From NCBI GenBank assembly GCA_951406725.2, contig OX597815.1:152024001-152088000 (forward strand): a DNA stretch of 64,000 nucleotides, given 5' to 3'. Below, one piece after another: positions 16,045 through 64,000 of the stretch. The notes under the pieces were generated by a model, which saw only the letters and a list, made by a program, of their open reading frames with translations, did not search any database and was not told the DNA's origin. The DNA comes from Octopus vulgaris (lineage: Eukaryota). The position numbers and the translations under genes are program-made. The number at the start of each line of letters is the position of its first letter. Position 1 is the first letter of the stretch.

Positions 16045-16279
16045 TGGTGTTTTTAGCGTGGCCGTTCGCCAGCCTCGTCTGGCACCTGTGTCGGTGGCAC
16101 ATAAAATCACCCACTACACTCTCGGAGTGGTTGGCGTTAGGAAGGGCATCCAGCTGTAGAAACACTGCCAGATCTGACTGGCCTGGTGCAGCCTTCGGGC
16201 TCCCCAGACCCCAGTTGAACCGTCCAACCCATGCTAGCATGGAAAACGGACGCTAAATGATGATGATGATGATGATGAT
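16045..16279 (+). mobile_element. RTE 3'-tail-derived short element
   Basis: Matches 15645-15872 (cgtggcc…gccagcctcgtctggca…cactacactc…gggcatccagctgtagaaac…atgatgatg). Confidence 0.9.
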
Positions 16280-16976
16280 CTCACTCTCGTGCTAGACTTT
16301 CAGCCAAATTTAGGAGATCCTGCTTGTTCGGCTTAGATTATCTGAAATATCTAAGGTTTTACACTTTATAGTTAAATTTCTATATCTCTATTGGAATTTA
16401 TATTTTATTGTTGTGAGATATTGCTATCATTAATGGTCAACTGGTGACCACTGTGATTTCAGTCAACATTTTTATACTTTCTACTGTGGTACCATGTAAT
16501 AACTTGATATCTAAGTCCATATCAGAGCAAACTAGACTTCCTAAATCTCCTCTCTATATTAAGACATCCTACTTAATCTAACAATGTTGCATTTATCTCA
16601 TTTATTTAACACTTGCTAAGGATTTTTATCACTTAGTTTTGTCTTCCATTAATTATATTTCTGCCATATCTATGATATGCCATTGTCCTCTCAAGTCTAG
16701 TCTTTACTAACCAATATTCTTCTCATTATCTGCTTAATTCCAATGTCAACCAGGGCTTAGCCATCTAAGATCTAGCCACAAACACATAACACACCACTTC
16801 AATTAGGATCATCATACACCTGCTCACTCTCTCTCTCTCTCTGTTAAAGGTTGCCACTGGTAATCTTGAATTTTAACTACCTACATTACAGTTCACCAGA
16901 ATGTCATCTGATTCTTGAAATATTTGAAAACATATACTTGTCATTCATCCTTCTTAATAAAGCAGGTTCTCTTCAG

Positions 16977-17420
16977 GTGAGCAAAGATTAGATCTACACA
17001 GGTGAAATGGACAGTGGTAATGTGCCCTCAAACACTGTGCATTTGCACTCAACATCATGAACTATATATAACCAATCATCCATATATTGCAACGAAAGTA
17101 TCTGGAATGGTACAAAAGAACTGATTCTCAAGAATATAGGTTACCTTTATTTAAATCTCATCTATATATCAAACAAAGTTACCTTCCCCTTGGTAATATC
17201 TCCTTTATCCATGTGGTTGCCATTGATAGGGTAGAAACCAAGAAACCAGAAAATTTGAGGACTTGGAACTTACACCTGTGTAGCAGGTTGTGACTGACAG
17301 AAACTGTCTTGTGATGTTATTGTTAGTATAAGAACAACATCAAAAGGAATATGTAATCCCATTCACGTTACCACTGTTATACTATATTTGTCACTGATGT
17401 TAACTAAAACCAACTAATTA
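16977..17420 (+). pseudogene. Decayed immunoglobulin-domain exon with hydrophobic C-terminal (GPI-signal-like) tail
   Basis: Reads …PSNTVHLH…/KYLEWYKRTDSQEYRLPL…HVVAIDRVETKKPEN/ED(x)GTYTCVAGCD*QKLSCDVIVSIRTTSKGICNPIHVTTVILYLSLMLTKTN*. Shows Ig C-strand WYK, D.G.YTC.A and a G strand, but needs frameshifts and has stops. Confidence 0.55.
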
Positions 17421-18332
17421 CAAAAGGTCGGAGTAATCCTTTATAAAATATACCTAAATAGTATCATAAATATACAGAAATATTTCACATTTTGTTTTAG
17501 GACACAATAACATCTGGACCTTATTGGACTATAGAAGTCAATAATGCCAGTGTGTAGAGAAGTGGTTAAGTGCACAAGAAAAACAGTAGAATTACTTACA
17601 CAGATGGTAATAAGGTTTAAATCTGTTGGGTGAGGGTACAAGATAATGCTATGACAAAATACGTTTAACTTCAGACATACAAATGTAAATCAGTTAATGA
17701 ATAATATCTGATTCATTACCATGTTAACAGTTTGTATATGTAATACAAAAAAAACACTGTCTGACATTGCAATACTAGATATCTATATAAATTGTATATA
17801 ATCTGACTAAAAAATAAGTAATTTTCACTACAGTGAATATGATTATTTCTCAGCACAGATCTATATTGTAGAAGTTCCATCATCATCATGATCGTTGTTT
17901 AATATCCGCTTTCTATGCTGAGGTCTGACTGGGGCTGGCAAGCGAGAAGGCTGCACCAGGATCCAATCTGATCTGATATATATGCATATATTTGTAAACA
18001 TACATATACATGCCCACAGATATATGTATATATATATACATACATATATATTCATAGATATATCACAGTGAAAGTGTTAACTCATATTACAATAGTGATT
18101 TTATTGTTTCACTTTTGACATGTAATGCTGAAATAGTGTAAGAGACAAGAGATTGCTCCAGGATCACATTAGACAAGAATTTGAAAATCTGTCTGGCCCA
18201 TGACGCTGCATGGAGCCTAAGTAAGACGTGTGTGAAATTTGAATGAAATCATGCAGGTAGTTCTCGAGTTTTAGTGATGCACACATACAGGCAGACAGAC
18301 AAACATTTACACTCACACATACATGTATTCTC

Positions 18333-18385
<53 letters not shown>

Positions 18386-18963
18386 ATAATACATATTCTA
18401 ACCTGAGCCATTCTGGGAAGATAGTCTGGCAAGAGATGATATCTCATATCAAACATCAGAGTACTGTAAAACACTGACATCTTCTTAAGATGAAAAATCA
18501 AGAAGAAATTCTGGAGAACGATTTTGTAAACAAACGAAATTATCTTTAACAATTTTTACCACTTAAAAACATTTTCAGTTGAGATTTGTTATTGAATCTC
18601 CTACATTAGAAAGCTGAGAATGATGTCCTTATAAGTACTTTTGACTTTAATTATCACTCTCAGAAGATGTTAATAACATCATTAAGCATCTCTGTTGGCT
18701 CACAACTGACAGTCACTCAGTCTTGTCATTCTCCACCTATCCTTCAAATCACCATTCTTATCCTCATTTTCCCACAACTTTCACTCCCTGCATCCTCATT
18801 ATTCTTCTTTCATCACCTCTCAACTTGTCACCTTGAATAAAAAACACATCATCAGAGCAGTAAGAACTGTCTTCTTTCATGGGATGCAAGAAAAACTGAC
18901 CAATGCTAGTCCTCAAGGAAAAACTTATAGAAATCAATTTGCTATTTTCAGTTTTATACTCAC

Positions 18964-19020
18964 CATGTGTGATTGATGTACATTGAACTGGTGTACTTAA
19001 CTGTTCATTTGGATTTAAGC
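18964..19020 (-). CDS. Micro-exon type A (57 nt, phase 1-1): (G)LNPNEQLSTPVQCTSITH
   Basis: atttcag|GCTTAAATCC…ATCACACATG|gtgagtat; open frame, length a multiple of 3. Confidence 0.7.
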
Positions 19021-21716
19021 CTGAAATACATAATTTCAAGTGTTATAATTTATAGTAAAATTTACCAGCATTCACATTCACACAAAAATCTATAATTATT
19101 AATCTAAACTTTTACGTTTAACAAACATTCACAGTAACACTGACCAAATGATTTTGCAGGTAGACTTTCTAACGCCTGTTGAGATTTTGTGATTGAGCCT
19201 CATACATTACCAAAGCCAACATTGATGTTCTAGTAAGTGACACGGTCTTTGATAATTGGATTCTCAAGGTGTTAGTAAATCATTAACCATCTCACAAATA
19301 ACTGTATCTTAGCTTCATCCATTCGGTCATGTCATGCTCCACCTCTCTTTAATGTCATTGTTCTTATCATCCTTTTCTTGTAACTTTCAGTCCCTGCATC
19401 CTCATTATTCTTCTGTTTTTACTTAAACTTCTCACTTTCTCAACATGTCTTCATGATTGTAAAAACACATGAAAGAGCAATGAGAATTGTATAATATTAT
19501 GAGATGCAAGACAACCTGACCAGTGCTAGCACTATGAGGAAATGGCCCCAGTACACACTTGAAAGTGATTGGTAAATGAGAGGAGACAGCATAATTTTCT
19601 GTGGAACGTTCAATCTAATTGTGGACATTGGAGTCTGGTGCTGCCCCTCTGCTTGCCAGCTGTGGTCAAACTGTCCAACGCAGGCCAGCATGGACAATGG
19701 ACGTAAAATGTTGATGATGATGACAATCTTATTAGTGCCTGTGTTACAATAAAACATACCCAAGAGACTTTATAAAATGGTTGCTGTTAAGATGGTAACT
19801 TGTCAAAGAAAATCCAGAGTATTTACGAGAGATGTGTGGCTACCTCAAGCAGTCAAAGTGGATGTTAACTCTGAATAAGAACTGGCTTGGACATTGATGA
19901 CCCATCTAATCGACGGGAGCATGGAAGCAGATGATGAATGATAATGAGATTATCATTTATTTTTTTGTATTTATTATTTTGCATCTTGCAGCCTGTATAT
20001 AATCTTTAGGACTTGAAACTTACACCTGTGTAGCAGGGTCTGACTGATAGAAACTGCCGTGTGATGTTATTGTTAATATACGAACAACATCAAAAGGAAT
20101 ACTAATCCCATTCATGTTACAACTGTTTTACTATATTTGTCACTGATATTAATTAAAACCAACTAATTACAAAAGGTCACAGTAATGCTTTATATAATAT
20201 ACCTAAATACTATCATAAATATACAGAAATATTTAACATTTTGTTTTAGGACACAATAAAATCTGGACCTTATTGGACTACAGAAGTCAATAATGTCAGT
20301 TTGTAGAGAAGTGGTTGTGTACACAAGACAAACAGTAGAATTATTTACATAGATGGTAATAAGCTTTAAATCTGTTAAGTGAGGGTACAAGATGATGCTG
20401 TTATAAAATCAGGTTAAACTTCAGACATACAAATGTGGATCAGTTAATGAATAATATCTGATTCATTATCATGTTACCGGGTTGTATATGTAATACAAAA
20501 AAAAAACACTGTCTTACATTGCAATACTAGATATCTATATAAATTGTATATAATCTGACTAAAAAATAAGTGACTTTCATTAGAGTGAATATGATTATTT
20601 CTCAGCACAGATCTATATTGTAGACGTTCCATCAAAATCATCATCATCATCATTGTCATCGTCGTTTAATATCTGCTTTCTATGCTTAGGTCTGACTGAT
20701 TTCTGGCAAGCGAGAAGCCTGAACCAGGCTCCAATCTGATATGATATGTATGCATATACATGTAAACATACATATACATGCATACATATATATGCATATA
20801 TATACAGACATATGCATACATAAATATATCACAGTGAACCTATTAACTCACATTACAATAGTGATTTTATTGTTTCACGTTTGACAAGTAATACCGAAAT
20901 AGTGTAAGGGATAAGAGATTGCTCCAGGATCACATTAGGCAAGAATTTGAAAATCTAATTGGCCCATGACGCTGCATGGACCCTAAGTAAGACGTGTGTG
21001 AAATTTGAATGAAATCATGCAGGTAGTTCTCGAGTTTTAGCGATGCACACATACAGACAGACAGACAGACAAACATTTACACTCACACATACATGCATTC
21101 TCAGGTATATATATATATATATATATATATATGGACAATAATACATATTCTAACCTGAGCCATTCTGGGAAGATAGTCTGGCAAGGGATGATATCTCATA
21201 TCAAACATCAGAGTACTGTAAAACTCTGACATCTTCATAAGATGAAAAAATCAAGAAGAAATTCTGGAGAACGATTTTGTAAACAAACGAAATTATCTTT
21301 AACAATTTTTACCACTTAAAAACATTTTCAGTTGAGATTTGTTATTGAATCTCCTACATTAGAAAGCTGAGAATGATGTCCTTATAAGTACTTTTGACTT
21401 TAATTATCACTCTCAGAAGATGTTAATAACATCATTAAGCATCTCTGTTGGCTCACAACTGACAGTCACTCAGTCTTGTCATTCTCCACCTATCCTTCAA
21501 ATCACCATTCTTATCCTCATTTTCCCACAACATTCACTCCCTGCATCCTCATTATTCTTCTTTCATAACCTCTCAACTTGTCACCTTGAATAAAAAACAC
21601 ATCATCAGAGCAGTAAGAACTGTCTTCTTTCATGGGATGCAAGAAAAACTGACCAATGCTAGTCCTCAAGGAAAAACTTATAGAAATCAATTTGCTATTT
21701 TCAGTTTTATACTCAC

Positions 21717-21773
21717 CATGTGTGATTGATGTACATTGAACTGGTGTACTTAACTGTTCATTTGGATTTAAGC
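21717..21773 (-). CDS. Micro-exon type A (57 nt), identical copy
   Basis: Same sequence and splice sites as 18964-19020. Confidence 0.7.
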
Positions 21774-22907
21774 CTGAAATACATAATTTCAAGTGTTATA
21801 ATTTATAGTAAAATGTACCAGCATTCACATTCACACAAAAATCTATAATTATTAACCAAAACTTTTACCTCTTACAAACATTCACAGCAACACTGACCAA
21901 ATGATTTTGCAGGTAGACTTTCTAACGCGTGTTGAGATTTTGTGATTGAGCCTCATACTTTACCAAAGCCAACATTGATGTTCTAGTAAGTAACACGGTC
22001 TTTGAAAATTGGATTCTCAAGGTGTTAATAAATCATTAACCATCTCACAAATAATTGTATCTTAGCTTCATCCATTCGGTCATGTCATGCTCCGACCTCA
22101 CTTTAATGTCATTGTTCTTATCCTCATTTTCTTGTAACTTTCAATCCCTACATCCTCATTATTCTTCCGTTATCACTTAAACTTATCACTTTCTCAACAT
22201 GTCTTCATGATTGTAAAAACACATCAAGGAGCAATGAGAATTGTATAATATTATGAGATGCAAATAACATGACCAGTGCTAGCACTATGAGGAAATGGCC
22301 CCAGTACACACTTGAAAGTGATTGATAAATGAGAGGAGACAGCATAATTTTCTGTGGAACGTTCAACCTAATTGTGGACATTGGATTCTGATATCTCATA
22401 TCAAACATCAGACTACTGTAAAACTCTGACATCTTCATAAGATTGAAAATCAAGAAGAACTTCTGGAGAACGATTTTGTAAACAAACGAAATTATCTTTA
22501 AAATTTTTACCAGTAGAAAAAGGTTTCAGTTGAGATTTGTTATTGAATCTCCTACATTAGAAAGCTGAGAATGATCTTCTTATAAGTACTTTTGACTTGA
22601 ATTATCACTCTCACAAGATGTTAATACATCATCTCTGTAGGCTCACAACTGACAGTCACTCAGTCTTGTCATTCTCCAACTCTCTTTCAAATCACCATGC
22701 TTATCCTCGTTTCTCACAACTTTCACTCCCTGCATCCTCATTATTCTTCCGTCAATATTTCTCAAAGTGTCACCTTGAATGAAAAAACAACATCATAAGA
22801 GCAGTAAGAACTGTCTAATTTTATGGGACGCAAGAGAAACTAACCCATGCTAGTTCCCAAGGGAAAACTTAGAGAAATCGATTTGGTACTTTCAGTGTTA
22901 TACTCAC

Positions 22908-22964
22908 CATGATAGATTGATGCATTTTCAACTGGTGGACGTGGCTGTTCATTTAGATATAAAA
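22908..22964 (-). CDS. Micro-exon type B (57 nt, phase 1-1): (V)LYLNEQPRPPVENASIYH
   Basis: aattcag|TTTTATATCTAAATGAACAG…TCTATCATG|gtgagtat; homologous to type A (NEQ…PV…SI.H). Confidence 0.7.
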
Positions 22965-25652
22965 CTGAATTTCATAATTTCAAGTGTTATAATTTATAGT
23001 AAAATTTACCTGCGTACACATTCACACAAAAAGCTATAATTATTAATCTAAACTTTTACCATTTACGAACTTTCACAGCAACACTGACAAAATGATTTCA
23101 CAGTGAGACATTCTAATGCTTGTTGAGATTTTGTGATTGAGCCTCATACTTTACCAAAGCCAACATTGATGTTCTAGTAGATAACACTGTCTTTGATTAT
23201 TGGATTCTTAAGATGTTAGTAAATCATTAACCATCTCACAAATAATTGTATCTTAGCTTCATCCATTCGGTCATGTCATTCTCCACCTCTCTTTCAAGTC
23301 ATTGTTCTTATCCTCCTTTTCTTGTAACTTTCACTCCCTACATCCTCATTATTCTTCCGTTATCACTTAAACTTATCACTTTCTCAACATGTCTTCATGA
23401 TTGTAAAAACACATCAAAGAGCAATGAGAATTGTATAATATTATAAGATGTAAGACAACCTGACCAGTGCTAGCACTATGAGGAAATGGCCCCCGTACAC
23501 ACTTGAAAGTGATTGATAAATGAGAGGAGACAGCATAATTTTGAGTGGAACGTTCAATCTAATTGTGGACATTGGATTCTGATGCTGCCCATCAGCTTGT
23601 CAGGTCTGGTCAAACTGTCTAACCCAGGCCAGCATCGACAATGGTGATGATGACAATCTTATTAGTGCTTGTGTTACAATAAAACATACCCAAGAGACTT
23701 TATAAAACGGTTGCTGTTAAGATGGTATCTTGTCATAGAAAATCCAGAGTATTTAAGAGAGATGTGTGGCTACCTCAAGAAGTCAAAGTGGATGTTAAGT
23801 CTGAATAAGAACTGGCTTGGACATTGATGACACATCTAATCGACGGGAGCATGGAAGCAGATGATGAATGATGATGACATTATCATTAACTTTTTTGTAT
23901 TTATTATTTTGCATCTTGCAGCCTGTATATAATCTTTAGGACTTGAAACTTACACCTGTGTAGCAGGGTCTGACTTACAGAAACTGTCGTGTGATGTTAT
24001 TGTTAATATAAGATCAACATCAAAAAGAACATCTAATCTCATTCAAGTTACTACTGTTTTACTACATTTGTCACTGATATTAATTAAGACCAACTATTTA
24101 CAAAAGGTCACAGTAATGCTTCATATAATATATCTAAATAGTATCATAAATATACAGAAATATTTAACATTTTATTTTAGGACACAATAACATCTGAACC
24201 TTATTGGACTATAGGAGTCAATAATGTCAGTTTGTTGAGAAGTGGTTGTGTGCACAAGAAAAACAGTAGAATTACTTACACAGATGGTAATAAAGTTTAA
24301 ATCTGTTGGATGAGAGTAGATGATGCTGTTATAAAATCAGGTTAAATTTCAGACGTACAAATGTAAATCAATAAATGAATAATATCTGATTCATTACATG
24401 ATTCATGTTAACAGTTTGTATATGTAATACAAAAAAATACTGTCTGACATTGCAATACTAGATATCTATATAAATTGTATATATTCTGAGTAAAAAAGAA
24501 GTGACTTTCATTACAGTGAATATGATTATGTCTCAGCACAGATCTATATTGTAGAAGTTCCATCATCATCGTTATCATCACCATGATTGTTGTCGTCAAT
24601 TAATATCTGCTTTCCATGCTGACATGTATTGGACGGTCTGACTGAGAGCTGGCAAGCCAGAAGGTTGCACCAGTCTCCAAACTGATCTGACATGTGTGCA
24701 TATATATGTAAACATACATATACATGCATACATATATATGCATATATATACAGACATATACATACACAAATATATCACAGTGAAAGTATTAACTCACATT
24801 ACAATGGTGATTCTATTGTTTCACTTTTGACAAGTAATACTGAAATAGTGTAAGAGATAAGAGATTGCTCTTAGAACACATTAGGCAAGAAGTTGAAAAT
24901 TTGTTTGGCCCATGACACTGCATGGACCTGAAGTGAGGCATGTGTGAAATTTGTATGAAATCAGTTGGGTAGTTCTCGAGTTTTAGTGATGCACACATAC
25001 ATACAGACACACATTTACATGCACACATACATGCATTCTCAGTAATATATATATATATATATATCTTTATATAGACTATAAAACATATTCTAACCTGAGA
25101 TATTCTGGGAAGATAATCCAGCGAGAAATAATATAGCATATCACATATTAGACTACCATAAAAATCTGACAACCTCATAAGATGATCAATCAAGAAGAAC
25201 TTCTAGAGAACGATTTTATAAACAAAGGAAATTATATTTAACAATTTTCACCACTTAAAAATATTATCAGTTGAGATTTGTTATTTAATCTCCTACATTA
25301 GAAAGCTGAGAATGATGTTCTTATAAGTACTTTTGACTTAAATATCAGTTTCCCAAGATTTTAATAACATCATTAATCATCACTGTTGGCTGGCAACTGA
25401 CAGTCATTCAGTCTTGTCATTCTCCAACTCTCTTTCAAATAACCATTATTATCCTCATTTTCTCACAACTTTCACTCCCTGCATCCTCATTATTCTTCTG
25501 TCATCACTTCTCAATGTGTCCCCTTGAATGAAAAAACATCATAAGAGCAGTAAGAACTGTCAAATTTTATGGGATGCAAGAAAAACTGACCAATGCTAGT
25601 CCTCAAGGGAAAACTTATAGAAATCAATTTAGTACTTTAGTTTTATACTCAC

Positions 25653-25688
25653 CGACTGGCGCTTCATTTCCATCCCGCATGTGTGGGT
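25653..25688 (-). CDS. Micro-exon type C (36 nt, phase 1-1): (D)PHMRDGNEAPV
   Basis: atttcag|ACCCACACATGCGGGATGGAAATGAAGCGCCAGTCG|gtgagtat; 21/36 G+C within AT-rich flanks. Confidence 0.72.
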
Positions 25689-28394
25689 CTGAAATTCATA
25701 ATTTCAAGTGTTATAATTTATAGTAAAATTTACCTGCATACACATTCAAACAAAAAGCGATAATTATTAATCTAAACTTTTACCAATTAAAGACATTAAC
25801 AGCAACACTGACCAAATGATTTCACAGTTAGACTTTCTAATGTTTGTTCAGATTTTGTGATTGAGCCTCATACTTTACCAAAGCCAAATTTGATGTTCCA
25901 GTAGATAACACTGTCTTTGATAATTGGATTCTTAAGATGTTAGTAAATCATTAACCATCTCACAAATAATTGTATCTTAGCTTCATCCATTCGGTCATGT
26001 CATTCTCCACCTCTCTTTCAAGTCATTGTTCTTATCATCCTTTTCTTGTAACTTTCACTCCCTACATCCTCATTATTCTTCCGTTATCACTTAAACTTAT
26101 CACTTTCTCAACATGTCTTCATGATTGTAAAAACACATCAGAGAGCAATGAGAATTGTATCATATTATGAGATGCAAATAACATGACCAGTGCTAGCACT
26201 ATGAGGAAATGGCCCCAGTACACACTTGAAAGTGATTGATAAATGAGAGGAGACAGCATAATTTTCTGTGGAACGTTCAATCTAATTGTGGACATTGGAT
26301 TCTGATGCTGCCCATCAGCTTGTCGGCTCTGGTCAAACTGTCTAACCCAGGCCAGCATGGACAATGGACGTAAAATGATGATGATGATGATGACAATCTT
26401 ATTAGTGCCTGTGTTACAATAAAACATACCCAAGAGACTTTATAAAATTGTTGCTGTTAAGATGGTATCTTGTCAGAGAAAATCCAGAGTATTTAAGAGA
26501 GATGTGTGGCTACCTCAAGCAGTCAAAGTGGATGTTAAGTCTGAATAAGAACTGGCTTGGATATTGATGACCCATCTAATCGACGGGAGCATGGAAGCAG
26601 ATGATGAATGATAATGAGATTATCATTTATTTTTTTGTATTTATTATTTTGCATCTTGCAGCCTGTATATAATCTTTAGGACTTGAAACTTACACCTGTG
26701 TAGCAGGGTCTGACTTACAGAAACTGTCGTGTGATGTTATTGTTAATATAAGATCAACATCAAAAAGAACATCTAATCTCATTCATGTTACTACTGTTTT
26801 ACTACATTTGTCACTGATATTAATTAAGACCAACTATTTACAAAAGGTCACAGTAATGCTTCATATAATATATCTAAATAGTATCATAAATATACAGAAA
26901 TATTTAACATTTTATTTTAGGACACAATAACATCTGAACCTTATTGGACTATAGGAGTCAATAATGTCAGTTTGTTGAGAAGTGGTTGTGTGCACAAGAA
27001 AAACAGTAGAATTACTTACACAGATTGTTAATAAAGTTTAAATCTGTTGGATGAGAGTAGATGATGCTGTTATAAAATCAGGTTAAATTTCAGACGTACA
27101 AATGTAAATCAATAAATGAATAATATCTGATTCATTACATGATTCATGTTAACAGTTTGTATATGTAATACAAAAAAAATACTGTCTGACATTGCAATAC
27201 TAGATATCTATATAAATTGTATATATTCTGAGTAAAAAGAAGTGACTTTCATTACAGTGAATATGATTATGTCTCAGCACAGATCTATATTGTAGAAGTT
27301 CCATCATCATCGTTATCATCATCATGATTGTTGTCGTCAATTAATATCTGCTTTCCATGCTGACATGTATTGGATGGTCTGACTGAGAGCTGGCAAGCCA
27401 GAAGGTTGCACCAGTCTCCAAACTGATCTGACATGTGTGCATATATATGTAAACATACATATACATGCATACATATATATGCATATATATACAGACATAT
27501 ACATACACAAATATATCACAGTGAAAGTATTAACTCACATTACAATGGCGATTCTACTGTTTCACTTTTGACAAGTAATACTGAAATAGTGTAAGAGATA
27601 AGAGATTGCTCTTAGAACACATTAGGCAAGAAGTTGAAAATTTGTTTGGCCCATGACACTGCATGGACCTGAAGTGAGGCATGTGTGAAATTTGTATGAA
27701 ATCAGCTGGGTAGTTCTCGAGTTTTAGTGATGCACACATACATACAGACACACATTTACATGCACACATACATGCATTCTCAGTAATATATATATATATA
27801 TATCTTTATATAGACTATAAAACATATTCTAACCTGAGATATTCTGGGAAGATAATCCAGCGAGAAATAATATAGCATATCACATATTAGACTACCGTAA
27901 AAATCTGACAACCTCATAAGATGATCAATCAAGAAGAACTTCTAAAGAACGATTTTATAAACAAAGGAAATTATCTTTAACAATTTTTACCACTTAAAAA
28001 TATTTCCAGTTTAGATTTGTTATTTAATCTCCTACATTAGAAAGCTGAGAATAATGTTCTAATAAGTACTTTTGACTTTAATTATCAGTTTCCCAAGATG
28101 TTAATAACATCATTAATCATCACTGTTGGCTGGCAACTGACAGTCACTCAGTCTTGTCATTCTCCAACTCTCTTTCAAATCACCATTATTATCCTCGTTT
28201 TCTCACAACTTTCACTCCCTGCATCCTCATTATTCTTCTGTCATCACTTCTCAATGTGTCACCTTGAATGAAAGAACATATCATAAGAGCAGTAAGAACT
28301 GTCTAATTTTATGGGACGCAAGAAAAACTGACCAATGCTAGTCCTCAAGGGAAAACTTATAGAAATCAATTTAGTACTTTAGTTTTATACTCAC

Positions 28395-28430
28395 CGACTG
28401 GCGCTTCATTTCCATCCCGCATGTGTGGGT
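28395..28430 (-). CDS. Micro-exon type C (36 nt)
   Basis: Identical to 25653-25688 with intact ttcag/gtgagt. Confidence 0.72.
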
Positions 28431-31136: not shown

Positions 31137-31172
31137 CGACTGGCGCTTCATTTCCATCCCGCATGTGTGGGT
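31137..31172 (-). CDS. Micro-exon type C (36 nt)
   Basis: Identical copy, splice sites intact. Confidence 0.72.
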
Positions 31173-33887: not shown

Positions 33888-33923
33888 CGACTGGCGCTTC
33901 ATTTCCATCCCGCATGTGTGGGT
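33888..33923 (-). CDS. Micro-exon type C (36 nt)
   Basis: Identical copy, splice sites intact. Confidence 0.72.
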
Positions 33924-36633: not shown

Positions 36634-36669
36634 CGACTGGCGCTTCATTTCCATCCCGCATGTGTGGGT
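36634..36669 (-). CDS. Micro-exon type C (36 nt)
   Basis: Identical copy, splice sites intact. Confidence 0.72.
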
Positions 36670-39405: not shown

Positions 39406-39441
39406 CGACTGGCGCTTCATTTTCATCCCGCATGTGTGGGT
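39406..39441 (-). CDS. Micro-exon type C variant (36 nt): (D)PHMRDENEAPV
   Basis: Plus strand cattttcatcccg instead of catttccatcccg, i.e. GGA>GAA (G>E); splice sites intact. Confidence 0.7.
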
Positions 39442-42147: not shown

Positions 42148-42183
42148 CGACTGGCGCTTCATTTCCATCCCGCATGTGTGGGT
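42148..42183 (-). CDS. Micro-exon type C (36 nt)
   Basis: Identical copy, splice sites intact. Confidence 0.72.
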
Positions 42184-44898: not shown

Positions 44899-44934
44899 CG
44901 ACTGGCGCTTCATTTCCATCCCGCATGTGTGGGT
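44899..44934 (-). CDS. Micro-exon type C (36 nt)
   Basis: Identical copy, splice sites intact. Confidence 0.72.
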
Positions 44935-47653: not shown

Positions 47654-47689
47654 CGACTGGCGCTTCATTTCCATCCCGCATGTGTGGGT
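47654..47689 (-). CDS. Micro-exon type C (36 nt)
   Basis: Identical copy, splice sites intact. Confidence 0.72.
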
Positions 47690-50394: not shown

Positions 50395-50430
50395 CGACTG
50401 GCGCTTCATTTCCATCCCGCATGTGTGGGT
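50395..50430 (-). CDS. Micro-exon type C (36 nt)
   Basis: Identical copy, splice sites intact. Confidence 0.72.
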
Positions 50431-53140: not shown

Positions 53141-53176
53141 CGACTGGCGCTTCATTTCCATCCCGCATGTGTGGGT
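53141..53176 (-). CDS. Micro-exon type C (36 nt)
   Basis: Identical copy, splice sites intact. Confidence 0.72.
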
Positions 53177-55880
53177 CTGAAATTCATAATTTCAAGTGTA
53201 ATAATTTATAGTAAAATTTACCTGCATACACATTCACACAAAAAGCTATAATTATTAATCTAAACTTTTACCAATTAAAGACATTAACAGCAACACTGAC
53301 CAAATGATTTCACAGTTAGACTTTCTAATGTTTGTTCAGATTTTGTGATTGAGCCTCATACTATAACAAAGCCAAATTTGATGTTCCAGTAGATAACACT
53401 GTCTTTGATAATTGGATTCTTAAGATGTTAGTAAATCATTAACCATCTCACAAATAATTGTATCTTAGCTTCATCCATTCGGTCATGTCATTCTCCACCT
53501 CTCTTTCAAGTCATTGTTCTTATCATCCTTTTCTTGTAACTTTCACTCCCTACATCCTCATTATTCTTCCGTTATCACTTAAACTTATCACTTTCTCAAC
53601 ATGTCTTCATGAGTGTAAAAACACATCAGAGAGCAATGAGAATTGTATCATATTATGAGATGCAAATAACATGACCAGTGCTAGCACTATGAGGAAATGG
53701 CCCCAGTACACACTTGAAAGTGATTGATAAATGAGAGGAGACAGCATAATTTTCTGTGGAACGTTCAATCTAATTGTGGACATTGGATTCTGATGCTGCC
53801 CATCAGCTTGTCGGCTCTGGTCAAACTGTCTAACCCAGGCCAGCATGGACAATGGACGTAAAATGATGATGATGATGATGACAATCTTATTAGTGCCTGT
53901 GTTACAATAAAACATACCCAAGAGACTTTATAAAATGGTTGCTGTTAAGATGGTATCTTGTCATAGAAAATCCAGAGTATTTAAGAGAGATGTGTGGCTA
54001 CTTCAAGCAGTCAAAGTGGATGTTAAGTCTGAATAAGAACTGGCTTGGATATTGATGACCCATCTAATCGACGGGAGCATGGAAGCAGATGATGAATGAT
54101 AATGACATTATCATTTATTTTTTGTATTTATTATTTTGCATCTTGCAGCCTGTATATAATCTTTAGGACTTGAAACTTACACCTGTGTAGCAGGGTCTGA
54201 CTTACAGAAACTGTCGTGTGATGTTATTGTTAATATAAGATCAACATCAAAAAGAACATCTAATCTCATTCATGTTACTACTGTTTTACTACATTTGTCA
54301 CTGATATTAATTAAGACCAACTATTTACAAAAGGTCACAGTAATGCTTCATATAATATATCTAAATAGTATCATAAATATACAGAAATATTTAACATTTT
54401 ATTTTAGGACACAATAACATCTGAACCTTATTGGACTATAGGAGTCAATAATGTCAGTTTGTTGAGAAGTGGTTGTGTGCACAAGAAAAACAGTAGAATT
54501 ACTTACACAGATGGTAATAAAGTTTAAATCTGTTGGATGAGAGTAGATGATGCTGTTATAAAATCAGGTTAAATTTCAGACGTACAAATGTAAATCAATA
54601 AATGAATAATATCTGATTCATTACATGATTCATGTTAACAGTTTGTATATGTAATACAAAAAAAAATACTGTCTGACATTGCAATACTAGATATCTATAT
54701 AAATTGTATATATTCTGAGTAAAAAATAAGTGACTTTCATTACTGTGAATATGATTATGTCTCAACACAGATCTATATTGTAGAAGTTCCATCATTATCG
54801 TTATCATCATCATGATTGTTGTCGTCAATTAATATCTGCTTTCCATGCTGACATGTATTGGACGGTCTGACTGAGAGCTGGCAAGCCAGAAGGTTGCACC
54901 AGTCTCCAAACTGATCTGACATGTGTGCATATATATGTAAACATACATATACATGCATACATATATATGCATATATATACAGACATATACATACACAAAT
55001 ATATCACAGTGAAAGTATTAACTCACATTACAATGGCGATTCTATTGTTTCACTTTTGACAAGTAATACTGAAATAGTGTAAGAGATAAGAGATTGCTCT
55101 TAGAACACATTAGCCAAGAAGTTGAAAATACGTTTGGCCCATGACACTGCATGGACCTGAAGTAAGGCATGTGGGAAATTTGTATGAAATCAGCTGGGTA
55201 GTTCTCGAGTTTTAGTGATGCACACATACATACAGACACACATTTACATGCACACATACATGCATTCTCTGTAATATATATATATATATATCTTTATATA
55301 GACTATAAAACATATTCTAACCTGAGATATTCTGGGAAGATAATCCAGCGAGAAATAATATAGCATATCACATATTAGACTACCGTAAAAATCTGACAAC
55401 CTCATAAGATGATCAATCAAGAAGAACTTCTAGAGAACGATTTTATAAACAAAGGAAATTATCTTTAACAATTTTCACCACTTAAAAATATTTCCAGTTG
55501 AGATTTGTTATTTAATCTCCTACATTAGAAAGCTGGGAATGATGTTCTTATAAGTACTTTTGACTTAAATATCAGTTTCCCAAGATGTTAATAACATCAT
55601 TAATCATCACTGTTGGCTGGCAACTGACAGTCACTCAGTCTTGTCATTCTCCAACTCTCTTCAAATCACCATTATTATCCTCGTTTTCTCACAACTTTCA
55701 CTCCCTGCATCCTCACTATTCTTCTGTCATCACTTCTCAATGTGTCACCTTGAATGAAAGAACATATCATAAGAGCAGTAAGAACTGTCTAATTTTATGG
55801 GACGCAAGAAAAACTGACCAATGCTAGTCCTCAAGGGAAAACTTATAGAAATCAATTTAGTACTTTAGTTTTATACTCAC

Positions 55881-55916
55881 CGACTGGCGCTTCATTTCCA
55901 TCCCGCATGTGTGGGT
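55881..55916 (-). CDS. Micro-exon type C (36 nt)
   Basis: Identical copy, splice sites intact. Confidence 0.72.
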
Positions 55917-58621
55917 CTGAAATTCATAATTTCAAGTGTTATAATTTATAGTAAAATTTACCTGCATACACATTCACACAAAAAGCTATAATTATTAATC
56001 TAAACTTTTACCAATTAAAGACATTAACAGCAACACTGACCAAATGATTTCACAGTTAGACTTTCTAATGTTTGTTCAGATTTTGTGATTGAGCCTCATA
56101 CTATAACAAAGCCAAATTTGATGTTCCAGTAGATAACACTGTCTTTGATAATTGGATTCTTAAGATGTTAGTAAATCATTAACCATCTCACAAATAATTG
56201 TATCTTAGCTTCATCCATTCGGTCATGTCATTCTCCACCTCTCTTTCAAGTCATTGTTCTTATCATCCTTTTCTTGTAACTTTCACTCCCTACATCCTCA
56301 TTATTCTTCCGTTATCACTTAAACTTATCACTTTCTCAACATGTCTTCATGAGTGTAAAAACACATCAGAGAGCAATGAGAATTGTATCATATTATGAGA
56401 TGCAAATAACATGACCAGTGCTAGCACTATGAGGAAATGGCCCCAGTACACACTTGAAAGTGATTGATAAATGAGAGGAGACAGCATAATTTTCTGTGGA
56501 ACGTTCAATCTAATTGTGGACATTGGATTCTGATGCTGCCCATCAGCTTGTCGGCTCTGGTCAAACTGTCTAACCCAGGCCAGCATGGACAATGGACGTA
56601 AAATGATGATGATGATGATGACAATCTTATTAGTGCCTGTGTTACAATAAAACATACCCAAGAGACTTTATAAAATTGTTGCTGTTAAGATGGTATCTTG
56701 TCATAGAAAATCCAGAGTATTTAAGAGAGATGTGTGGCTACTTCAAGCAGTCAAAGTGGATGTTAAGTCTGAATAAGAACTGGCTTGGATATTGATGACC
56801 CATCTAATCGACGGGAGCATGGAAGCAGATGATGAATGATAATGACATTATCATTTATTTTTTTGTATTTATTATTTTGCATCTTGCAGCCTGTATATAA
56901 TCTTTAGGACTTGAAACTTACACCTGTGTAGCAGGGTCTGACTTACAGAAACTGTCGTGTGATGTTATTGTTAATATAAGATCAACATCAAAAAGAACAT
57001 CTAATCTCATTCATGTTACTACTGTTTTACTACATTTGTCACTGATATTAATTAAGACCAACTATTTACAAAAGGTCACAGTAATGCTTCATATAATATA
57101 TCTAAATAGTATCATAAATATACAGAAATATTTAACATTTTATTTTAGGACACAATAACATCTGAACCTTATTGGACTATAGGAGTCAATAATGTCAGTT
57201 TGTTGAGAAGTAGTTGTGTGCACAAGAAAAACAGTAGAATTACTTACACAGATGGTAATAAAGTTTAAATCTGTTGGATGAGAGTAGATGATGCTGTTAT
57301 AAAATCAGGTTAAATTTCAGACGTACAAATGTAAATCAATAAATGAATAATATCTGATTCATTACATGATTCATGTTAACAGTTTGTATATGTAATACAA
57401 AAAAAAATACTGTCTGACATTGCAATACTAAATATCTATATAAATTGTATATATTCTGAGTAAAAAATAAGTGACTTTCATTACTGTGAATATGATTATG
57501 TCTCAACACAGATCTATATTGTAGAAGTTCCATCATTATCGTTATCATCATCATGATTGTTGTCGTCAATTAATATCTGCTTTCCATGCTGACATGTATT
57601 GGACGGTCTGACTGAGAGCTGGCAAGCCAGAAGGTTGCACCAGTCTCCAAACTGATCTGACATGTGTGCATATATATGTAAACATACATATACATGCATA
57701 CATATATATGCATATATATACAGACATATACATACACAAATATATCACAGTGAAAGTATTAACTCACATTACAATGGCGATTCTATTGTTTCACTTTTGA
57801 CAAGTAATACTGAAATAGTGTAAGAGATAAGAGATTGCTCTTAGAACACATTAGGCAAGAAGTTGAAAATTTGTTTGGCCCATGACACTGCATGGACCTG
57901 AAGTAAGGCATGTGTGAAATTTGTATGAAATCAGCTGGGTAGTTCTCGAGTTTTAGTGATGCACACATACATACAGACACACATTTACATGCACACATAC
58001 ATGCATTCTCAGTAATATATATATATATATATCTTTATATAGACTATAAAACATATTCTAACCTGAGATATTCTGGGAAGATAATCCAGCGAGAAATAAT
58101 ATAGCATATCACATATTAGACTACCGTAAAAATCTGACAACCTCATAAGATGATCAATCAAGAAGAACTTCTAGAGAACGATTTTATAAACAAAGGAAAT
58201 TATCTTTAACAATTTTCACCACTTAAAATATTTCCAGTTGAGATTTGTTATTTAATCTCCTACATTAGAAAGCTGGGAATGATGTTCTTATAAGTACTTT
58301 TGACTTAAATATCAGTTTCCCAAGATGTTAATAACATCATTAATCATCACTGTTGGCTGGCAACTGACAGTCACTCAGTCTTGTCATTCTCCAACTCTCT
58401 TTCAAATCACCATTATTATCCTCGTTTTCTCACAACTTTCACTCCCTGCATCCTCACTATTCTTCTGTCATCACTTCTCAATGTGTCACCTTGAATGAAA
58501 AAACATATCATAAGAGCAGTAAGAACTGTCTAATTTTATGGGACGCAAGAAAAACTGACCAATGCTAGTCCTCAAGGGAAAACTTATAGAAATCAATTTA
58601 GTACTTTAGTTTTATACTCAC

Positions 58622-58657
58622 CGACTGGCGCTTCATTTCCATCCCGCATGTGTGGGT
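58622..58657 (-). CDS. Micro-exon type C (36 nt)
   Basis: Identical copy, splice sites intact. Confidence 0.72.
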
Positions 58658-60757
58658 CTGAAATTCATAATTTCAAGTGTTATAATTTATAGTAAAATTT
58701 ACCTGCATACACATTCACACAAAAAGCTATAATTATTAATCTAAACTTTTACCAATTAAAGACATTAACAGCAACACTGACCAAATGATTTCACAGTTAG
58801 ACTTTCTAATGTTTGTTCAGATTTTGTGATTGAGCCTCATACTATAACAAAGCCAAATTTGATGTTCCAGTAGATAACACTGTCTTTGATAATTGGATTC
58901 TTAAGATGTTAGTAAATCATTAAACATCTCACAAATAATTGTATCTTAGCTTCATCCATTCGGTCATGTCATTCTCCACCTCTCTTTCAAGTCATTGTTC
59001 TTATCATCCTTTTCTTGTAACTTTCACTCCCTACATCCTCATTATTCTTCCGTTATCACTTAAACTTATCACTTTCTCAACATGTCTTCATGATTGTAAA
59101 AACACATCAGAGAGCAATGAGAATTGTATCATATTATGAGATGCAAATAACATGACCAGTGCTAGCACTATGAGGAAATGGCCCCAGTACACACTTGAAA
59201 GTGATTGATAAATGAGAGGAGACAGCATAATTTTCTGTGGAACGTTCAATCTAATTGTGGACATTGGATTCTGATGCTGCCCATCAGCTTGTCGGCTCTG
59301 GTCAAACTGTCTAACCCAGGCCAGCATGGACAATGGACGTAAAATGATGATGATGATGATGACAATCTTATTAGTGCCTGTGTTACAATAAAACATACCC
59401 AAGAGACTTTATAAAATGGTTGCTGTTAAGATGGTATCTTGTCATAGAAAATCCAGAGTATTTAAGAGAGATGTGTGGCTACCTCAAGCAGTCAAAGTGG
59501 ATGTTAAGTCTGAATAAGAACTGGCTTGGACATTGATGACCCATCTAATCGACGGGAGCATGGAAGCAGATGATGAATGATAATGACACTATCATTTATT
59601 ATTTTGTATTTATTATTTTGCATCTTGCAGCCTGTATATAATCTTTAGGACTTGAAACTTACACCTGTGTAGCAGGGTCTGACTGACAGAAACTGTCATG
59701 TGATGTTATTGTTAATATAAGAAAAACATCAAAAGGAATACTAATCCCATTCACTTTACCAAACTTATACTACATTTGTCACTGATATCAATTAAAACCA
59801 ACTAATTGCAAAAGGTCACAGTAATGCTTTATATAATATATCTAAATAGTATCATAAATATACAGAAATATTTAACATTTTATTTTAGGACACAATAACA
59901 TCTGGACCTTATAGGACTATAGGTGTCAATAATGCCAGTTTGTAGAGAAGTGGTTGTGTGCACAAGACAAACAGTAGAATTATTTACACAGATTGTAATA
60001 AGGTTTAAATCTGTTGGGGGAGGGTACAAGATAATGCTATGACAAAATAAGGTTAAACTTCAGACATACAAATGTAAATCAGTTAATGAATAATATCTGA
60101 TTCATTACCATGTTAACAGTTTGTATATGTGATACAAAATGAAAAAACACCGTCTGACATTGCAAAACTAGATATCTGTATAAATTGTATATATTCTGAC
60201 TAAAAAATAAGTGACTTTCATTACAGTGAATATGATTATTTCTCAGCACAGATCTATATTATAGTAGTTCCATCATCATCGTTATCATCATCATTATCGT
60301 CGTCGCCGTTTAATGTCTATTTTCCATGCTGGCATGGATTGGACGGTCTGACTGGGAGCTGGCAAGCCGGAAGTTTGCACCAGTCCCCAGACTGATCTTA
60401 TATGTATGCATAGATATGTAAACATACATATACATGCATGCATATATATAAATATATATACAGACATATACATACACAAATATATCTCAGTGAAAGTATT
60501 AACTCACATTACAATATCGATTTTATTGTTTCACATTTGACAAGTAATACTGAAATAGTGTAAGAGATAAGAGATTGCTACAGGATCACATTAGGCATGA
60601 AGTTGAAAATTTGTTGGGCCCATGACATTGCATGGACCTTAAGTAAGGCATATGTGAAATATGTATGAAAGCAGTGGGTAATTCTTTAGTTTTAGTGATA
60701 CACACATACGAACAGACAGGCAGACACACATTTACACGCACACAAACATGCATTCTC

Positions 60758-60812
<55 letters not shown>

Positions 60813-61385
60813 GACTATAATACATATTCTAACCTGAAACATTCTGGGAAGATACTCCGGTGAGAGATGATATCTCATATCAAACATCAGAGTATGTAAA
60901 TCTCTGACATCTTCATATGATTAAAAATCAAGAAGAACTTCTGGAGAACAATTTTGTAAACAAACGAAATTATCTTTAACAATTTTTACCAGTAGAAAAA
61001 GGTTTCAGTTGAGATTTGTTATTGAATCTCCTACATTAGAAAGCTGAGAATGAATTCTTATAAGTACTTTTGACTTGAATTATCACTCTCACAAGATGTT
61101 AATACGTCATCTCTTGAGGCTCACAACTGACAGTCACTCAGTCTTGTCATTCTCCAACTCTCTTTCAAATCACCATTCTTATCCTCGTTTCTCACAACTT
61201 TCACTCCCTGCATCCTCATTATTCTTCCGTCAATATTTCTCAAAGTGTCACCTTGAATGAAAAGACAACATCATAAGAGCAGTAAGAACTGTGTAATTTT
61301 ATGGGACGCAAGAAAAACTGACCAATGCTAGTCCCCAAGGGAAAACTTATAGAAATCGATTTGGTACTTTCAGTGTTATACTCAC

Positions 61386-61443
61386 CATGATAGATTGATG
61401 CATTTTCAACTGGTGGACCTGGCTGTTCATTTTAGATATAAAA
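61386..61443 (-). pseudogene. Micro-exon type B copy with a 1-nt insertion (58 nt); dead cassette or homopolymer error
   Basis: Plus strand ttcattttagat versus ttcatttagat in 22908-22964; phase-1 reading hits TGA after LYLK. Without the extra base it reads LYLNEQPGPPVENASIYH. Splice sites intact. Confidence 0.6.
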
Positions 61444-64000
61444 CTGAAATTCATACTTTTAAGTGTTATAATTTATAGTAAAATTTACCTGCATACACAT
61501 TCACACAAAAAGCTATAATTATTAATCTAAACTTTTACCATTTACGAACTTTCACAGCAACACTGACCAAATGATTTCACAGTGAGTCTTTCTAATGCTT
61601 GTTGAGATTTTGTGATTGAGCCTCATACTTTACCAAAGCCAACATTGATGTTCTAGTAGATAACACTGTCTCTGATTATTGGATTCTCAAGATGTTAGTA
61701 AATCATTAACCATCTCACAAATAATTGTATCTTAGCTTCATCCATTCGGTCATGTCATTCTCCATCTCTCTTTCAAGTCATTGTTCTTATCCTCATTTTC
61801 TTGTAACTTTCACTCCCTACATCCTCATTATTCTTCCGTTATCACTTAAACTTATCACTTTCTCGAACATGTCTTCATGATTGTAAAAACACATCAAAGA
61901 GCAATGAGAATTGTATAATATTATGAGATGCAAGACAACTTGACCAGTGCTAGCACTATGAGGAAATGGCCCCAGTACACACATGAATGTGATTGGTGAA
62001 TGAGAGGAGACAGCATATTTTTCTGTGGAACGTTCAATCTAATTTTGGATATTGGAGTCTGGTGCTGCCCCACAGCTTGCCAGCTCTGGTCAAACTGTCT
62101 AACCCAGGCCAGCATGAGCAATGGACGTAAAATGCTGATGATGATGATGACAATCTTATTAGTGCCTGTGTTACGATAAAACATACCCAAGAGACTTTAT
62201 AAAATGGTTGCTGTTAAGATGGTATCTTGTCATAGAAAATCCGGAGTATTTAAGAGAGATTTGTGGCTACCTCAAGCAGTCAAAGTAGATGTTAAGTCTG
62301 AATAAGAACTGGCTTGGATATCGATGACCCATCTAATCGACGGGAGCACGGAAGCAGATGTTGAATGATAATGACGTTATCATTTAAGTTTTTGTATTTA
62401 TTATTTTGCATCTTGCAGCCTGTATCTAATCTTTAGGACTTGGAACTTACACCTGTGTAGCAGGGTCTGATTGACAGAAACTGTCGTGTGATGTTATTGG
62501 TAATATAATATCAACATCAAAAAGAACATCTAATCCCATTCATGTTACTACTGTTTTACTACATTTGTCTCTGATATTAATTAAGACCAACTATTTACAA
62601 AAGGTCACAGTAATGCTTCATATAATATATCTAAATAGTATCATAAATATACAGAAATATTTAACATTTTATTTTAGGACACAATAACGTCTGAACCTTG
62701 TTGGACTATAGGCGTCAATAATGTCAGTTTGTAGAGAAGTGGTTGTGTGCACAAGAAAAACAGTAGAATTACTTACACAGATGGTAATAAGGTTTAAATC
62801 TGTTGGATGAGAGTAGATGATGCTTTTATAAAATCAGGTTAAATTTCAGACATACAAATGTAAATCAATAAATGAATAATATCTGATTCATTACATGAAT
62901 ATCTGATTCATTACATGATTCATGTTAACTGTTTGTATATGTAATACAAAAAAAATACTGTCTGACATTGCAATACTAGATATCTATATAAATTGTATAT
63001 ATTCTGAGTAAAAAATAAGTGACTTTCATTACAGTGAACATGATTATATCTCAGCACAGATCTATATTGTAGAAGTTCCATCATCATCGTTATCATCATC
63101 ATGATTGTTGTCGTCAATTAATATCTGCTTTCCATGCTGACATGTATTGGACGGTCTGACTGAGAGCTGGCAAGCCAGAAGGTTGCACCAGTCTCCAAAC
63201 TGATCTGACATGTGTGCATATATATGTAAACATACATATACATGCATACATATATATGCATATATATACAGACATATACATACACAAATATATCACAGTG
63301 AAAGTATTAACTCACATTACAATGGCGATTCTATTGTTTCACTTTTGACAAGTAATACTGAAATAGTGTAAGAGATAAGAGATTGCTCCAAGAACACATT
63401 AAGCAAGAAGTTGAAAATTTGTTTGGCCCATGACACTGCATGGACCTGAAGTAAGGCATGTGTGAAATTTGTATGAAATCAGCTGGGTAGTTCTCGAGTT
63501 TTAGTGATGCACACATACATACAGACAGACTGACACACATTTACATGCACACATACATGCATTCTCAGTAATATATATATATATATCTTTATATAGACTA
63601 TAAAACATATTCTAACCTGAGATATTCTGGGAAGATACTCCAGCGAGAAATAATATAGCATATCACATATTAGACTACCGTAAAAATCTGACAACTTCAT
63701 AAGATGATCAATCAAGAAGAACTTCTAGAGAACGATTTTGTAAACAAAAGAAGTTATCTTTAACAATTTGTACCACTTAAAAACATTTCCAGTTGAGATC
63801 TGTTATTGAATCTCCTACATTAGAAAGCTGAGAATGATGTTCTTATAAGTACTTTTGACTTTAATTATCAGTTTCCCAAGATGTTAATACATCATTAATC
63901 ATCACTGTTGGCTGGCAACTGACAGTCACTCAGTCTTTTCATTCTCCAACTCTCTTTCAAAACACCATTATTATCCTCGTTTTCTCACAACTTTCACACC

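Follow-up and report, generated by a model that had tools for sequence, protein, structure and literature searches.

The tandem array and its cassettes

The window, i.e. the whole stretch of DNA analysed, comprises 64,000 nucleotides of Octopus vulgaris (GCA_951406725.2, contig OX597815.1, positions 152,024,001 to 152,088,000). From position 17255 to beyond the window end, at about 65600, a minus-strand gene contains a head-to-tail array of about 48 kb, with a k-mer period of 2740-2772 and a unit of about 2.75 kb. Macrosatellites are defined as head-to-tail kb-scale units of high identity, the copy number of which varies among individuals, and the array is composed of such high-identity units. 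On the minus strand, 17 of the 19 GGTGAGT sites of the window share one within-unit position, in agreement with an earlier note that placed one minus-strand segment at the same position of each unit. The tandem arrangement of symmetric small exons and introns described there was also borne out. An 18th segment (66 nt) lies just past the window end. The features are the following, all on the minus strand and given in the order of the gene.

G000:C2:152238397, minus, start codon of the host gene
L001 2896-3227, minus, TM5-TM7 exon, outside the window
177-242 bases past the window end (L001 177-242), minus, D, first tail exon, 66 nt, 18th cassette
17255..64000, minus, tandem array of introns and exons, 3′ part of the adhesion GPCR gene, running about 1,600 bases past the window end
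61386..61443, minus, B′ cassette, 58 nt, out of frame, with a new AG 12 nt 5′ of the acceptor
58622..58657, minus, C cassette 1, 36 nt, phase 1-1
55881..55916, minus, C cassette 2
53141..53176, minus, C cassette 3
50395..50430, minus, C cassette 4
47654..47689, minus, C cassette 5
44899..44934, minus, C cassette 6
42148..42183, minus, C cassette 7
39406..39441, minus, C cassette 8, single substitution, E in place of G
36634..36669, minus, C cassette 9
33888..33923, minus, C cassette 10
31137..31172, minus, C cassette 11
28395..28430, minus, C cassette 12
25653..25688, minus, C cassette 13
22908..22964, minus, B cassette, 57 nt, in frame, two tyrosines, absent from the O. sinensis model
21717..21773, minus, A cassette 1, 57 nt
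18964..19020, minus, A cassette 2, 57 nt
16041..16341, minus, remnant of death-domain exon 1, with an in-frame stop, a dispersed-repeat insertion of about 230 nt (presumably SINE-like) and loss of the donor GT
7807..7925, minus, death-domain exon 2 as the final coding exon, with 39 aa left after a deletion and a stop

The 17 cassettes of the window (13 of 36 nt, three of 57 nt and one of 58 nt) are all bounded by an acceptor ending in TCAG and by the donor G/GTGAGT, where the slash marks the exon boundary. Counting confirms that the 16 cassettes of 36 or 57 nt are in phase 1-1 and stop-free. The AG-free stretch 5′ of the acceptor, first estimated at about 45 nt for the C units, measures 43 nt in B and in each of the 13 C cassettes, 67 nt in the two A cassettes and 10 nt in B′. 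This last cassette, which differs from B by a single base added within a run of A, sits 5′ of all C exons and its inclusion leads to a stop within five codons at most. Being out of frame with an early stop, it makes the array translatable only if it is skipped. Thus, the idea that any subset of segments may be skipped holds for 16 of the 17, whereas the 58-nt one has to be skipped. In the B-C13-B-A2 order given in the earlier note, the leading B peptide corresponds to the out-of-frame cassette, and one C carries E for G. The C peptide is devoid of Ser, Thr and Tyr. From its charge-hydropathy value (0.34, for a boundary at 0.47), the tail repeat is hydrophilic and probably disordered, as initially suggested.

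C units differ from each other by 0.2-2.4% and have 51 informative sites in common, and an 11,011-bp higher-order duplication spans four units; duplicated reads are thereby ruled out as the origin of the array. Expansion of a short array by the assembly is hardly credible. Although the extra base of B′ would be typical of long-read errors, and two N gaps and inverted near-duplicates are found nearby, the differences between units are shared in a tree-like manner and 11 copies occur in an independent O. sinensis model. One unit is truncated, with a B-to-A intron of 1,134 nt. Every unit also retains a remnant of an E/D-type acceptor, which has mutated to TGG in each of the 13 C units and has 19 nt after it in the A and B units; a second exon per unit was rejected as coding. 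Between A2 and the last exon, a simple filter for in-frame small exons gave one candidate, which contains a stop, and none passed.

The host gene and its O. sinensis ortholog

The cassettes are located in an LRR-GAIN/GPS-7TM adhesion GPCR gene of about 207 kb, after the TM5-7 exon and before the last exon. This host gene went unnoticed in the earlier note. An in silico model of 55 exons, all with AG/GT sites, gives a single continuous ORF of 1,635 aa (4.9 kb), which requires the skipping of three exons: an out-of-frame 61-nt LRR exon, B′ and the death-domain remnant. The ectodomain contains 18 in-frame LRR exons of 72 nt, plus Cys-rich and GAIN-region exons. The GPS exon (L004:2352-2489) precedes TM1 and matches PF01825 (E 1e-16). 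Its region contains H-L-T-S, which we take to be the GPS cleavage motif. All TM exons are open in one frame and have the organization of a secretin-like 7TM domain. With single exons, Pfam gave E 0.004 for the TM3 exon, below the cut-off, and no 7tm_2 match for the TM5-7 exon; single death-domain exons and P0126 had no match either. The identity of the TM5-7 and death-domain exons thus rests on orthologs.

In O. sinensis, the RefSeq ortholog XP_029651540.2 (LOC115224769), an automatic model named 'uncharacterized', is identical to the O. vulgaris model at 1420 of 1494 aligned residues (95%). Its domains above cut-off are LRR (LRR_8, 7e-137), GPS and 7tm_2 (PF00002, E 2e-12). It ends with D-C11-A2-last exon and already joins 11 of the 36-nt exons, which are thus not without annotation. 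D, the two A cassettes and the last exon are common to both models, but the O. sinensis one has 11 C instead of 13 and lacks the B cassettes and TM1-TM2. Because it leaves out the TM1-TM2 exons, intact in O. vulgaris, it is not fully reliable.

As the repeat follows TM7, the tail is predicted to be cytoplasmic. It is extremely improbable that the cassettes form a gene of their own, whether for a secreted polymorphic mucin or of the micro-exon kind, even if the layout of an exon within a tandem unit is shared with SmPoMuc. Indeed, the exon nearest to D on the upstream side is that of TM5-7, at a distance of 2.65 kb and compatible in phase; the C peptide contains neither Ser nor Thr, and the cassettes represent 705 of the 4,908 coding bases of the model. 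In schistosome micro-exon genes, the coding region consists mostly of symmetric exons of at most 36 nt and the product is secreted. Considering this small coding share, and the restriction of 36 nt to the C type, the proposed analogy with these genes fails.

Frame and divergence across paralogous loci

Four neighbouring paralogous loci carry different cassettes in the same intron. In the cluster, 60 donor-flank matches, minus seven copies of death-domain exon 1 and six intron-only matches, leave 47 cassettes, 43 of which have a length that is a multiple of 3. None of the 26 distinct in-frame cassettes contains a stop in the phase-1 frame, whereas stops occur in 12 and 23 of the 26 when the two other frames are read, and in 67 of 78 flanking windows. 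In 2,000 shuffles, at most 18 of the 26 were stop-free; these sequences are related and do not amount to 26 independent tests.

Such keeping of frame and avoidance of stops, maintained despite 12-50% divergence in exon sequence among cassette types, speak against the idea of an intronic satellite, in which exon-like remnants would never be spliced and RefSeq tails would be gene-prediction artefacts. Aligners and predictors can be misled by repeats, and no independent short protein was found with the O. sinensis ortholog tail (one weak plant match among 7,997 scored, nothing relevant). However, homologous exons are coding in ankyrin-RING-death-domain models. Moreover, O. sinensis XP_029658130.1 (LOC115232413), an automatic model labelled isoform X7, connects cassettes of the paralog type with a complete death domain, in a cassette order that differs from that of O. 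vulgaris paralog P3. At NCBI, alternative isoforms are annotated from transcript alignments. We therefore hold the intronic satellite to be very improbable.

Exon divergence between cassettes is about twice that of introns. In eight disjoint pairs, picked by the analyst for equal length, 58 of 420 exon positions differ, versus 291 of 3893 proximal and 489 of 7659 distal intron positions. In these pairs, pS is 0.083 and matches the intron rate, while pN is higher than that rate, at 0.153 (p~1e-5 to 1e-7); pN and pS do not differ significantly (p=0.12). Homogenisation of introns by gene conversion could also produce this pattern. Within the array, constraint on the C exon was not detected (1 variable site of 36, versus 125 of 2,651 in the intron).

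The death domain and the proposed history of the tail

The array gene copy of O. vulgaris has no complete two-exon death domain, and the same 39 aa close the O. sinensis ortholog model. In contrast, both death-domain exons are open in paralogs P0 and P3, and exon 2 of P0 is 49% identical (E 2e-18) to the Pfam-confirmed domain of P0002. It may be asked whether the copy is decaying, the tail or the whole gene being unneeded after loss of the domain. The product would then end at B′, or the gene would be a young pseudogene, and the C array would have grown neutrally by unequal crossing-over. The breakage of both death-domain exons would agree with such decay, as would the early stop from B′, the out-of-frame LRR exon, the lack of purifying signal in the C array and the neighbouring GPCR copies, which are partial or devoid of any LRR exon. 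However, the 55 modelled exons are open over 4.9 kb, at 95% identity to the sister-species model, splice sites and frame are kept by 16 of 17 cassettes, and the AG-free zone is broken in B′ alone, which fits skipping. On this basis, decay appears unlikely.

Octopus ankyrin-RING-death-domain ('MIB2-like') genes, e.g. XP_029656683.1, have the same two-exon split of the death domain (41-47% identity) and tandem 51-nt phase-1 linker exons. They differ by encoding cytosolic proteins and by linker introns of about 115 nt, against about 2.7 kb in the GPCR array. For the C donor, the initial 45 bases of the intron score 18-30 with 14 of 14 donors of linkers or death-domain exon 1 from four ankyrin-death-domain loci, but at most 7.5 with the host gene's own 37 upstream donors. 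Given this homology with the linker donors, the receptor probably acquired linker and death domain together by grafting; the tree of death domains has no root, and distribution is the sole basis for the direction of the graft. Elsewhere, C31 has a TM exon at 898 kb and, 50 kb downstream of it, a death-domain exon; the pair was rejected as a second such receptor, the domain belonging to an ankyrin-RING gene.

We consider it likely that the array constitutes the 3′ portion of the LRR-GAIN/GPS-7TM gene, that its cassettes are spliced in series, without B′, to encode a cytoplasmic tail of some 270 residues, predicted to be disordered, and that this tail derives from a grafted module. Position, canonical splice sites, the in silico ORF, and frame and stop avoidance across paralogs are directly observed; history and function we infer. 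The phase-1 linker exons and the two-exon death domain would have come by exon shuffling from the ankyrin-RING-death-domain family and been joined to the phase-1 end of TM7, at a time preceding the O. bimaculoides split. In the vulgaris/sinensis lineage, the linker exon and its enlarged intron would have been multiplied by unequal crossing-over and homogenised, with a fast divergence of the exon sequence. The cassettes may act as interchangeable signalling linkers, bearing Ser/Thr sites and Tyr motifs, between receptor and death domain. Any signalling role of the Tyr and Ser/Thr motifs is read from consensus patterns. With the death domain lost and C devoid of Ser, Thr and Tyr, the array copy would act as a receptor that lacks this domain and whose spacer is mostly inert.

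A broader and more doubtful proposal is that a skin and sucker adhesion GPCR family of octopuses signals via a captured death domain and a plug-in micro-exon cassette tail, subject to diversifying selection, reshuffling across paralogs and species, and alternative splicing, copies without the domain, the array copy included, being decoys or dampers. If true, one receptor head would be wired to many tail lengths and sets of Tyr/Ser motifs.

Comparison with known systems

Coding exons are contained in the LPA kringle IV-2 macrosatellite, whose product is secreted, and the DRD4 VNTR is a variable intracellular repeat of a GPCR, within one exon. In SmPoMuc genes, a 27-bp exon lies in a 1-kb unit of a mucin 5′ region (Roger et al., 2008; PMC2576457). 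Short exons with flanking introns in tandem, introns more homogenised than exons, both inside a gene and from gene to gene, and multigene clusters are points of likeness, although in octopus introns are more alike than exons between cassette types and not within the C array. The analogy drawn earlier thus stands for gene architecture, without an expected sequence relationship: the octopus exons have 36-66 nt, in a 2.75-kb unit, and belong to an adhesion GPCR, after TM7, rather than to the N-terminal end of a secreted mucin. Chicken BG is a polymorphic single-pass Ig surface protein, with a cytoplasmic tail from many small exons (13-36, varying between genes), 21-nt heptad coiled-coil exons, ITIMs and alternative splicing (PMC4046983). 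The octopus gene shares the tail made of many small exons, but is a 7TM receptor with a predicted disordered tail and near-identical kb-scale introns. Searches of open-access full-text literature did not reveal any GPCR with an exon-plus-intron macrosatellite as its intracellular tail in association with a grafted death domain, and the term 'death domain' is absent from 300,000 characters of a 2026 adhesion GPCR review (PMC13197933). The locus is a known architecture, that of SmPoMuc and chicken BG, in a new setting.

In a single genus, it would record how exons were shuffled, with a donor family that can be recognised from bases of the intron, how they were amplified and diverged fast, and how a domain was lost. 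An 'uncharacterized' model becomes a testable system, in which paralogs with and without the death domain offer natural contrasts for octopus-specific receptor signalling.

Judged by best matches, the host gene appears closest to the listed members of group 3 in the octopus-specific expansion of adhesion GPCRs described by Ritschard et al. (2019; PMC6408891), which resemble it by LRR, GPS, adhesion 7TM and tandem clustering; the available part of that article does not report tail repeats or splicing. The second-best match cluster of the host gene includes O. bimaculoides A0A0L8FLR8 (cluster-mate XP_052821851.1, 70% identity), listed there as the one Death-domain member of the group. Its expression is skin/sucker-biased (tau 0.96). 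This relative has a tail of 5-residue Ser/Thr/Gln repeats and an intact death domain, whereas the O. vulgaris gene has an exon-plus-intron array and a broken one.

The tandem array and its cassettes

The array observed in the window (G000:C2:152024001-152088000) is real. It is made of head-to-tail units with a period of 2.74-2.77 kb. Of 19 GGTGAGT sites on the window's minus strand, 17 share one position within the unit, which bears out the earlier note's claim of one donor-closed segment per unit at a constant place.

Features of the array and of its immediate surroundings (bare positions are window coordinates; L001 is the stretch starting just beyond the window end)
17255 to a point some 1,600 bases beyond the end of the window: tandem array, head-to-tail
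Minus strand, 13 copies of 36 nt: C cassettes, closed by GGTGAGT; one copy with G to E
Minus strand, one copy of 57 nt: B cassette, closed by GGTGAGT
Minus strand, two copies of 57 nt: A cassettes, closed by GGTGAGT
Minus strand, one copy of 58 nt: B' cassette, closed by GGTGAGT
L001 177-242, 66 nt: D cassette, the 18th, just outside the window
L001 2896-3227: exon reading as TM5-TM7, 2.65 kb upstream of D

The 13 C units differ from each other by 0.2-2.4%, have 51 informative sites in common and include a four-unit duplication of 11,011 bp. They are therefore true copies, made by successive duplication, and an assembly artefact is unlikely. Comparison of these 13 units gave no sign of constraint within the C array.

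Serial splicing of the cassettes into one long tail is the most likely reading; any 3n cassette could be skipped without loss of frame, and unequal crossing-over would change their number. Least well supported is an adaptive role for the tail's length or composition. Free skipping of any subset, as first proposed, holds for 3n cassettes but not for the 58-nt B': with D followed by B' in the model, the protein stops five codons past D. Among the 17 cassettes, B' alone has a broken AG-free zone. A CAG|GTAAAT motif is found 45 nt upstream of the acceptor in 13 of the 14 B and C units, and in B' as well. It might serve in cryptic or recursive splicing; used as an acceptor, it would add a stop.

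The host receptor gene

The TM5-TM7 exon has 60 genome matches, four of them within this cluster. Its closest database relative (93%) is O. sinensis XP_029651540.2, which has LRR, GPS and 7tm_2 domains and ends with D, eleven DPHMRDGNEAPV copies, two A peptides and 39 terminal residues. All exons of this protein were located on the genome; the start codon is at C2:152238397 and the stop codon at window 7807. The resulting model has 55 exons with AG/GT sites and a single ORF of 1,635 aa (1420 of 1494 aligned positions identical). Three exon-like segments had to be omitted from it, namely B', an LRR exon of 61 nt and the remnant at 16041-16341. That the array is a satellite never spliced is unlikely. 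The repeat is predicted to be cytoplasmic because it comes after TM7, and its composition is on the disordered side.

The architecture is already known from SmPoMuc (PMC2576457) and chicken BG tails (PMC4046983). The analogy with SmPoMuc extends to this architecture; a stand-alone mucin is unlikely, given the position of the repeat after TM7. As to a cephalopod equivalent, the cassette exons already figure in a RefSeq model made automatically. Neither the array nor the cassette family nor the graft proposed below was found described in searches of open-access full text.

Next closest is an O. bimaculoides protein that ends in a Pfam Death domain and falls in one cluster with A0A0L8FLR8, expressed chiefly in skin and sucker. 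The latter is given as the sole Death-domain member in group 3 of the octopus-specific adhesion GPCRs by Ritschard et al. (2019; PMC6408891), where this receptor occupies one line. Tail elongation may be recurrent in octopus adhesion GPCRs, because the tails of this relative (a 5-residue Ser/Thr/Gln repeat) and of P0015, a database octopus adhesion GPCR (repeated Tyr motifs), are repetitive too.

The LRR ectodomain is encoded by symmetric 72-nt phase-2 exons (G000:C2:152184-152220 kb; L010, L021-L024). Compared with the O. sinensis model, one is extra, two are missing and one is degenerate; therefore, the receptor head too varies through exon gain and loss. A degenerate GGAT satellite of 4-14 kb occupies the intron before the TM5-TM7 exon, both here (L001 3420-7570) and in the paralogous loci P2 and P3. 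GC-richer stretches at 12000-15500 (last intron) and 5800-7000 (beyond the last exon) look like retroelement remnants.

Loss and origin of the death domain

Two neighbouring paralogs, P0 (at C2:151.94 Mb) and P3 (at 152.48 Mb), have both exons of the death domain open. Exon 1 of the host gene contains a stop and a dispersed-repeat insertion and lacks the GT; its exon 2 is shortened by a deletion, a lesion also present in the paralog P4. Since the O. sinensis model has the same 39 terminal residues, the loss would predate the split from that species. The main rival to serial splicing, a decaying gene copy in which the array has grown neutrally, is to be weighed here; with lesions on one side and a single long ORF on the other, we regard it as improbable. 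Exon 1 is tandemly duplicated in P0 and P3 (G000:C2:151941823-151943981 and 152479803-152480976), and an O. sinensis model has two copies.

Exon 2 has at least 62 genome matches, at least 58 of them outside the C2 cluster. The four outside matches examined all follow ankyrin exons, with a RING exon seen in three. Database relatives are ankyrin-RING-Death 'MIB2-like' proteins, whose genes interrupt the domain where the receptor gene does. In the two C29 genes, the linker between RING and death domain is encoded by phase-1 exons of 51 nt, repeated in tandem at a spacing of about 166 bp. Against linker or death-domain exon-1 donors of ankyrin-death-domain loci, the first 45 intron bases downstream of the C cassette score 18-30 (14 of 14 donors); against the 37 upstream donors of the receptor itself, their score does not exceed 7.5. 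A precomputed Death domain occurs in one of the 120 receptor relatives listed. In the simplest reading, a single graft placed linker and death domain at TM7's phase-1 end. One side of a branch (90/91) is made up of the four receptor domains; because the tree is unrooted, the direction of the graft is inferred from distribution. A large death-domain family with repeat-exon linkers occurs on C29, C30, C31, C10 and other contigs; no paper on it was found in the open full-text literature.

Paralogous cassettes and neighbouring loci

A donor-flank search over 864 kb around the window gave 60 sites, of which 47 are cassettes; the 13 dropped are seven death-domain exon-1 copies and six intron-only matches. 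Cassette lengths are multiples of three in 43 of 47, and the 26 distinct in-frame sequences have no stop in the phase-1 frame (12 and 23 have stops in the other two). Between cassette types (45 pairs), exons are 50-88% identical and flanks 84-98%. In eight disjoint equal-length pairs, 13.8% of exon sites differ, against 6.4-7.5% of intron sites; synonymous sites differ by 8.3%, like introns, and non-synonymous sites by 15.3%, a difference that is not significant (p=0.12). This pattern suggests diversifying selection. Intron conversion is a rival cause of exons diverging beyond introns. Spider silk genes are cited in the SmPoMuc paper (PMC2576457) as having introns homogenised to a greater degree than exons.

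Many paralog cassettes are Ser/Thr-rich or have acidic YxxI/L/V/P-type Tyr motifs, the SH2 docking consensus. The nearest paralog of C (81% identical) has Tyr at the position of C's Asn. In O. sinensis XP_029658130.1, labelled isoform X7, paralog-type cassettes are joined to a complete death domain, in an order unlike that of P3. Isoform names at NCBI come from transcript evidence. This label comes closest to being RNA support, and it belongs to a paralog in O. sinensis.

P2 (minus) and P3 (plus) point apart around an N gap at 152374883 (G000:C2:152.33-152.43 Mb; L035-L045). Neither has the 5' LRR exons. Across 25 kb of the GAIN-TM4 region they match the host gene at 97-98% identity, yet their tails differ; recent inverted duplication, conversion and misassembly are alternatives. 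In P0 (G000:C2:151.886-151.948 Mb; L018-L020, L075-L078), the receptor exons run on the minus strand and the tail, with its death domain intact, on the plus strand. An N gap at 151930783 lies between them, and the scaffold may have been joined there in inverted orientation. P4 (G000:C2:152535214-152666139) has a signal exon, and no LRR exon was found ahead of its Cys-rich region; an O. vulgaris-labelled protein model covers its ectodomain only, without tail. The first exon of P4 is 97% identical to the O. sinensis model, against 89% for that of the host gene, which suggests exchange between paralogs.
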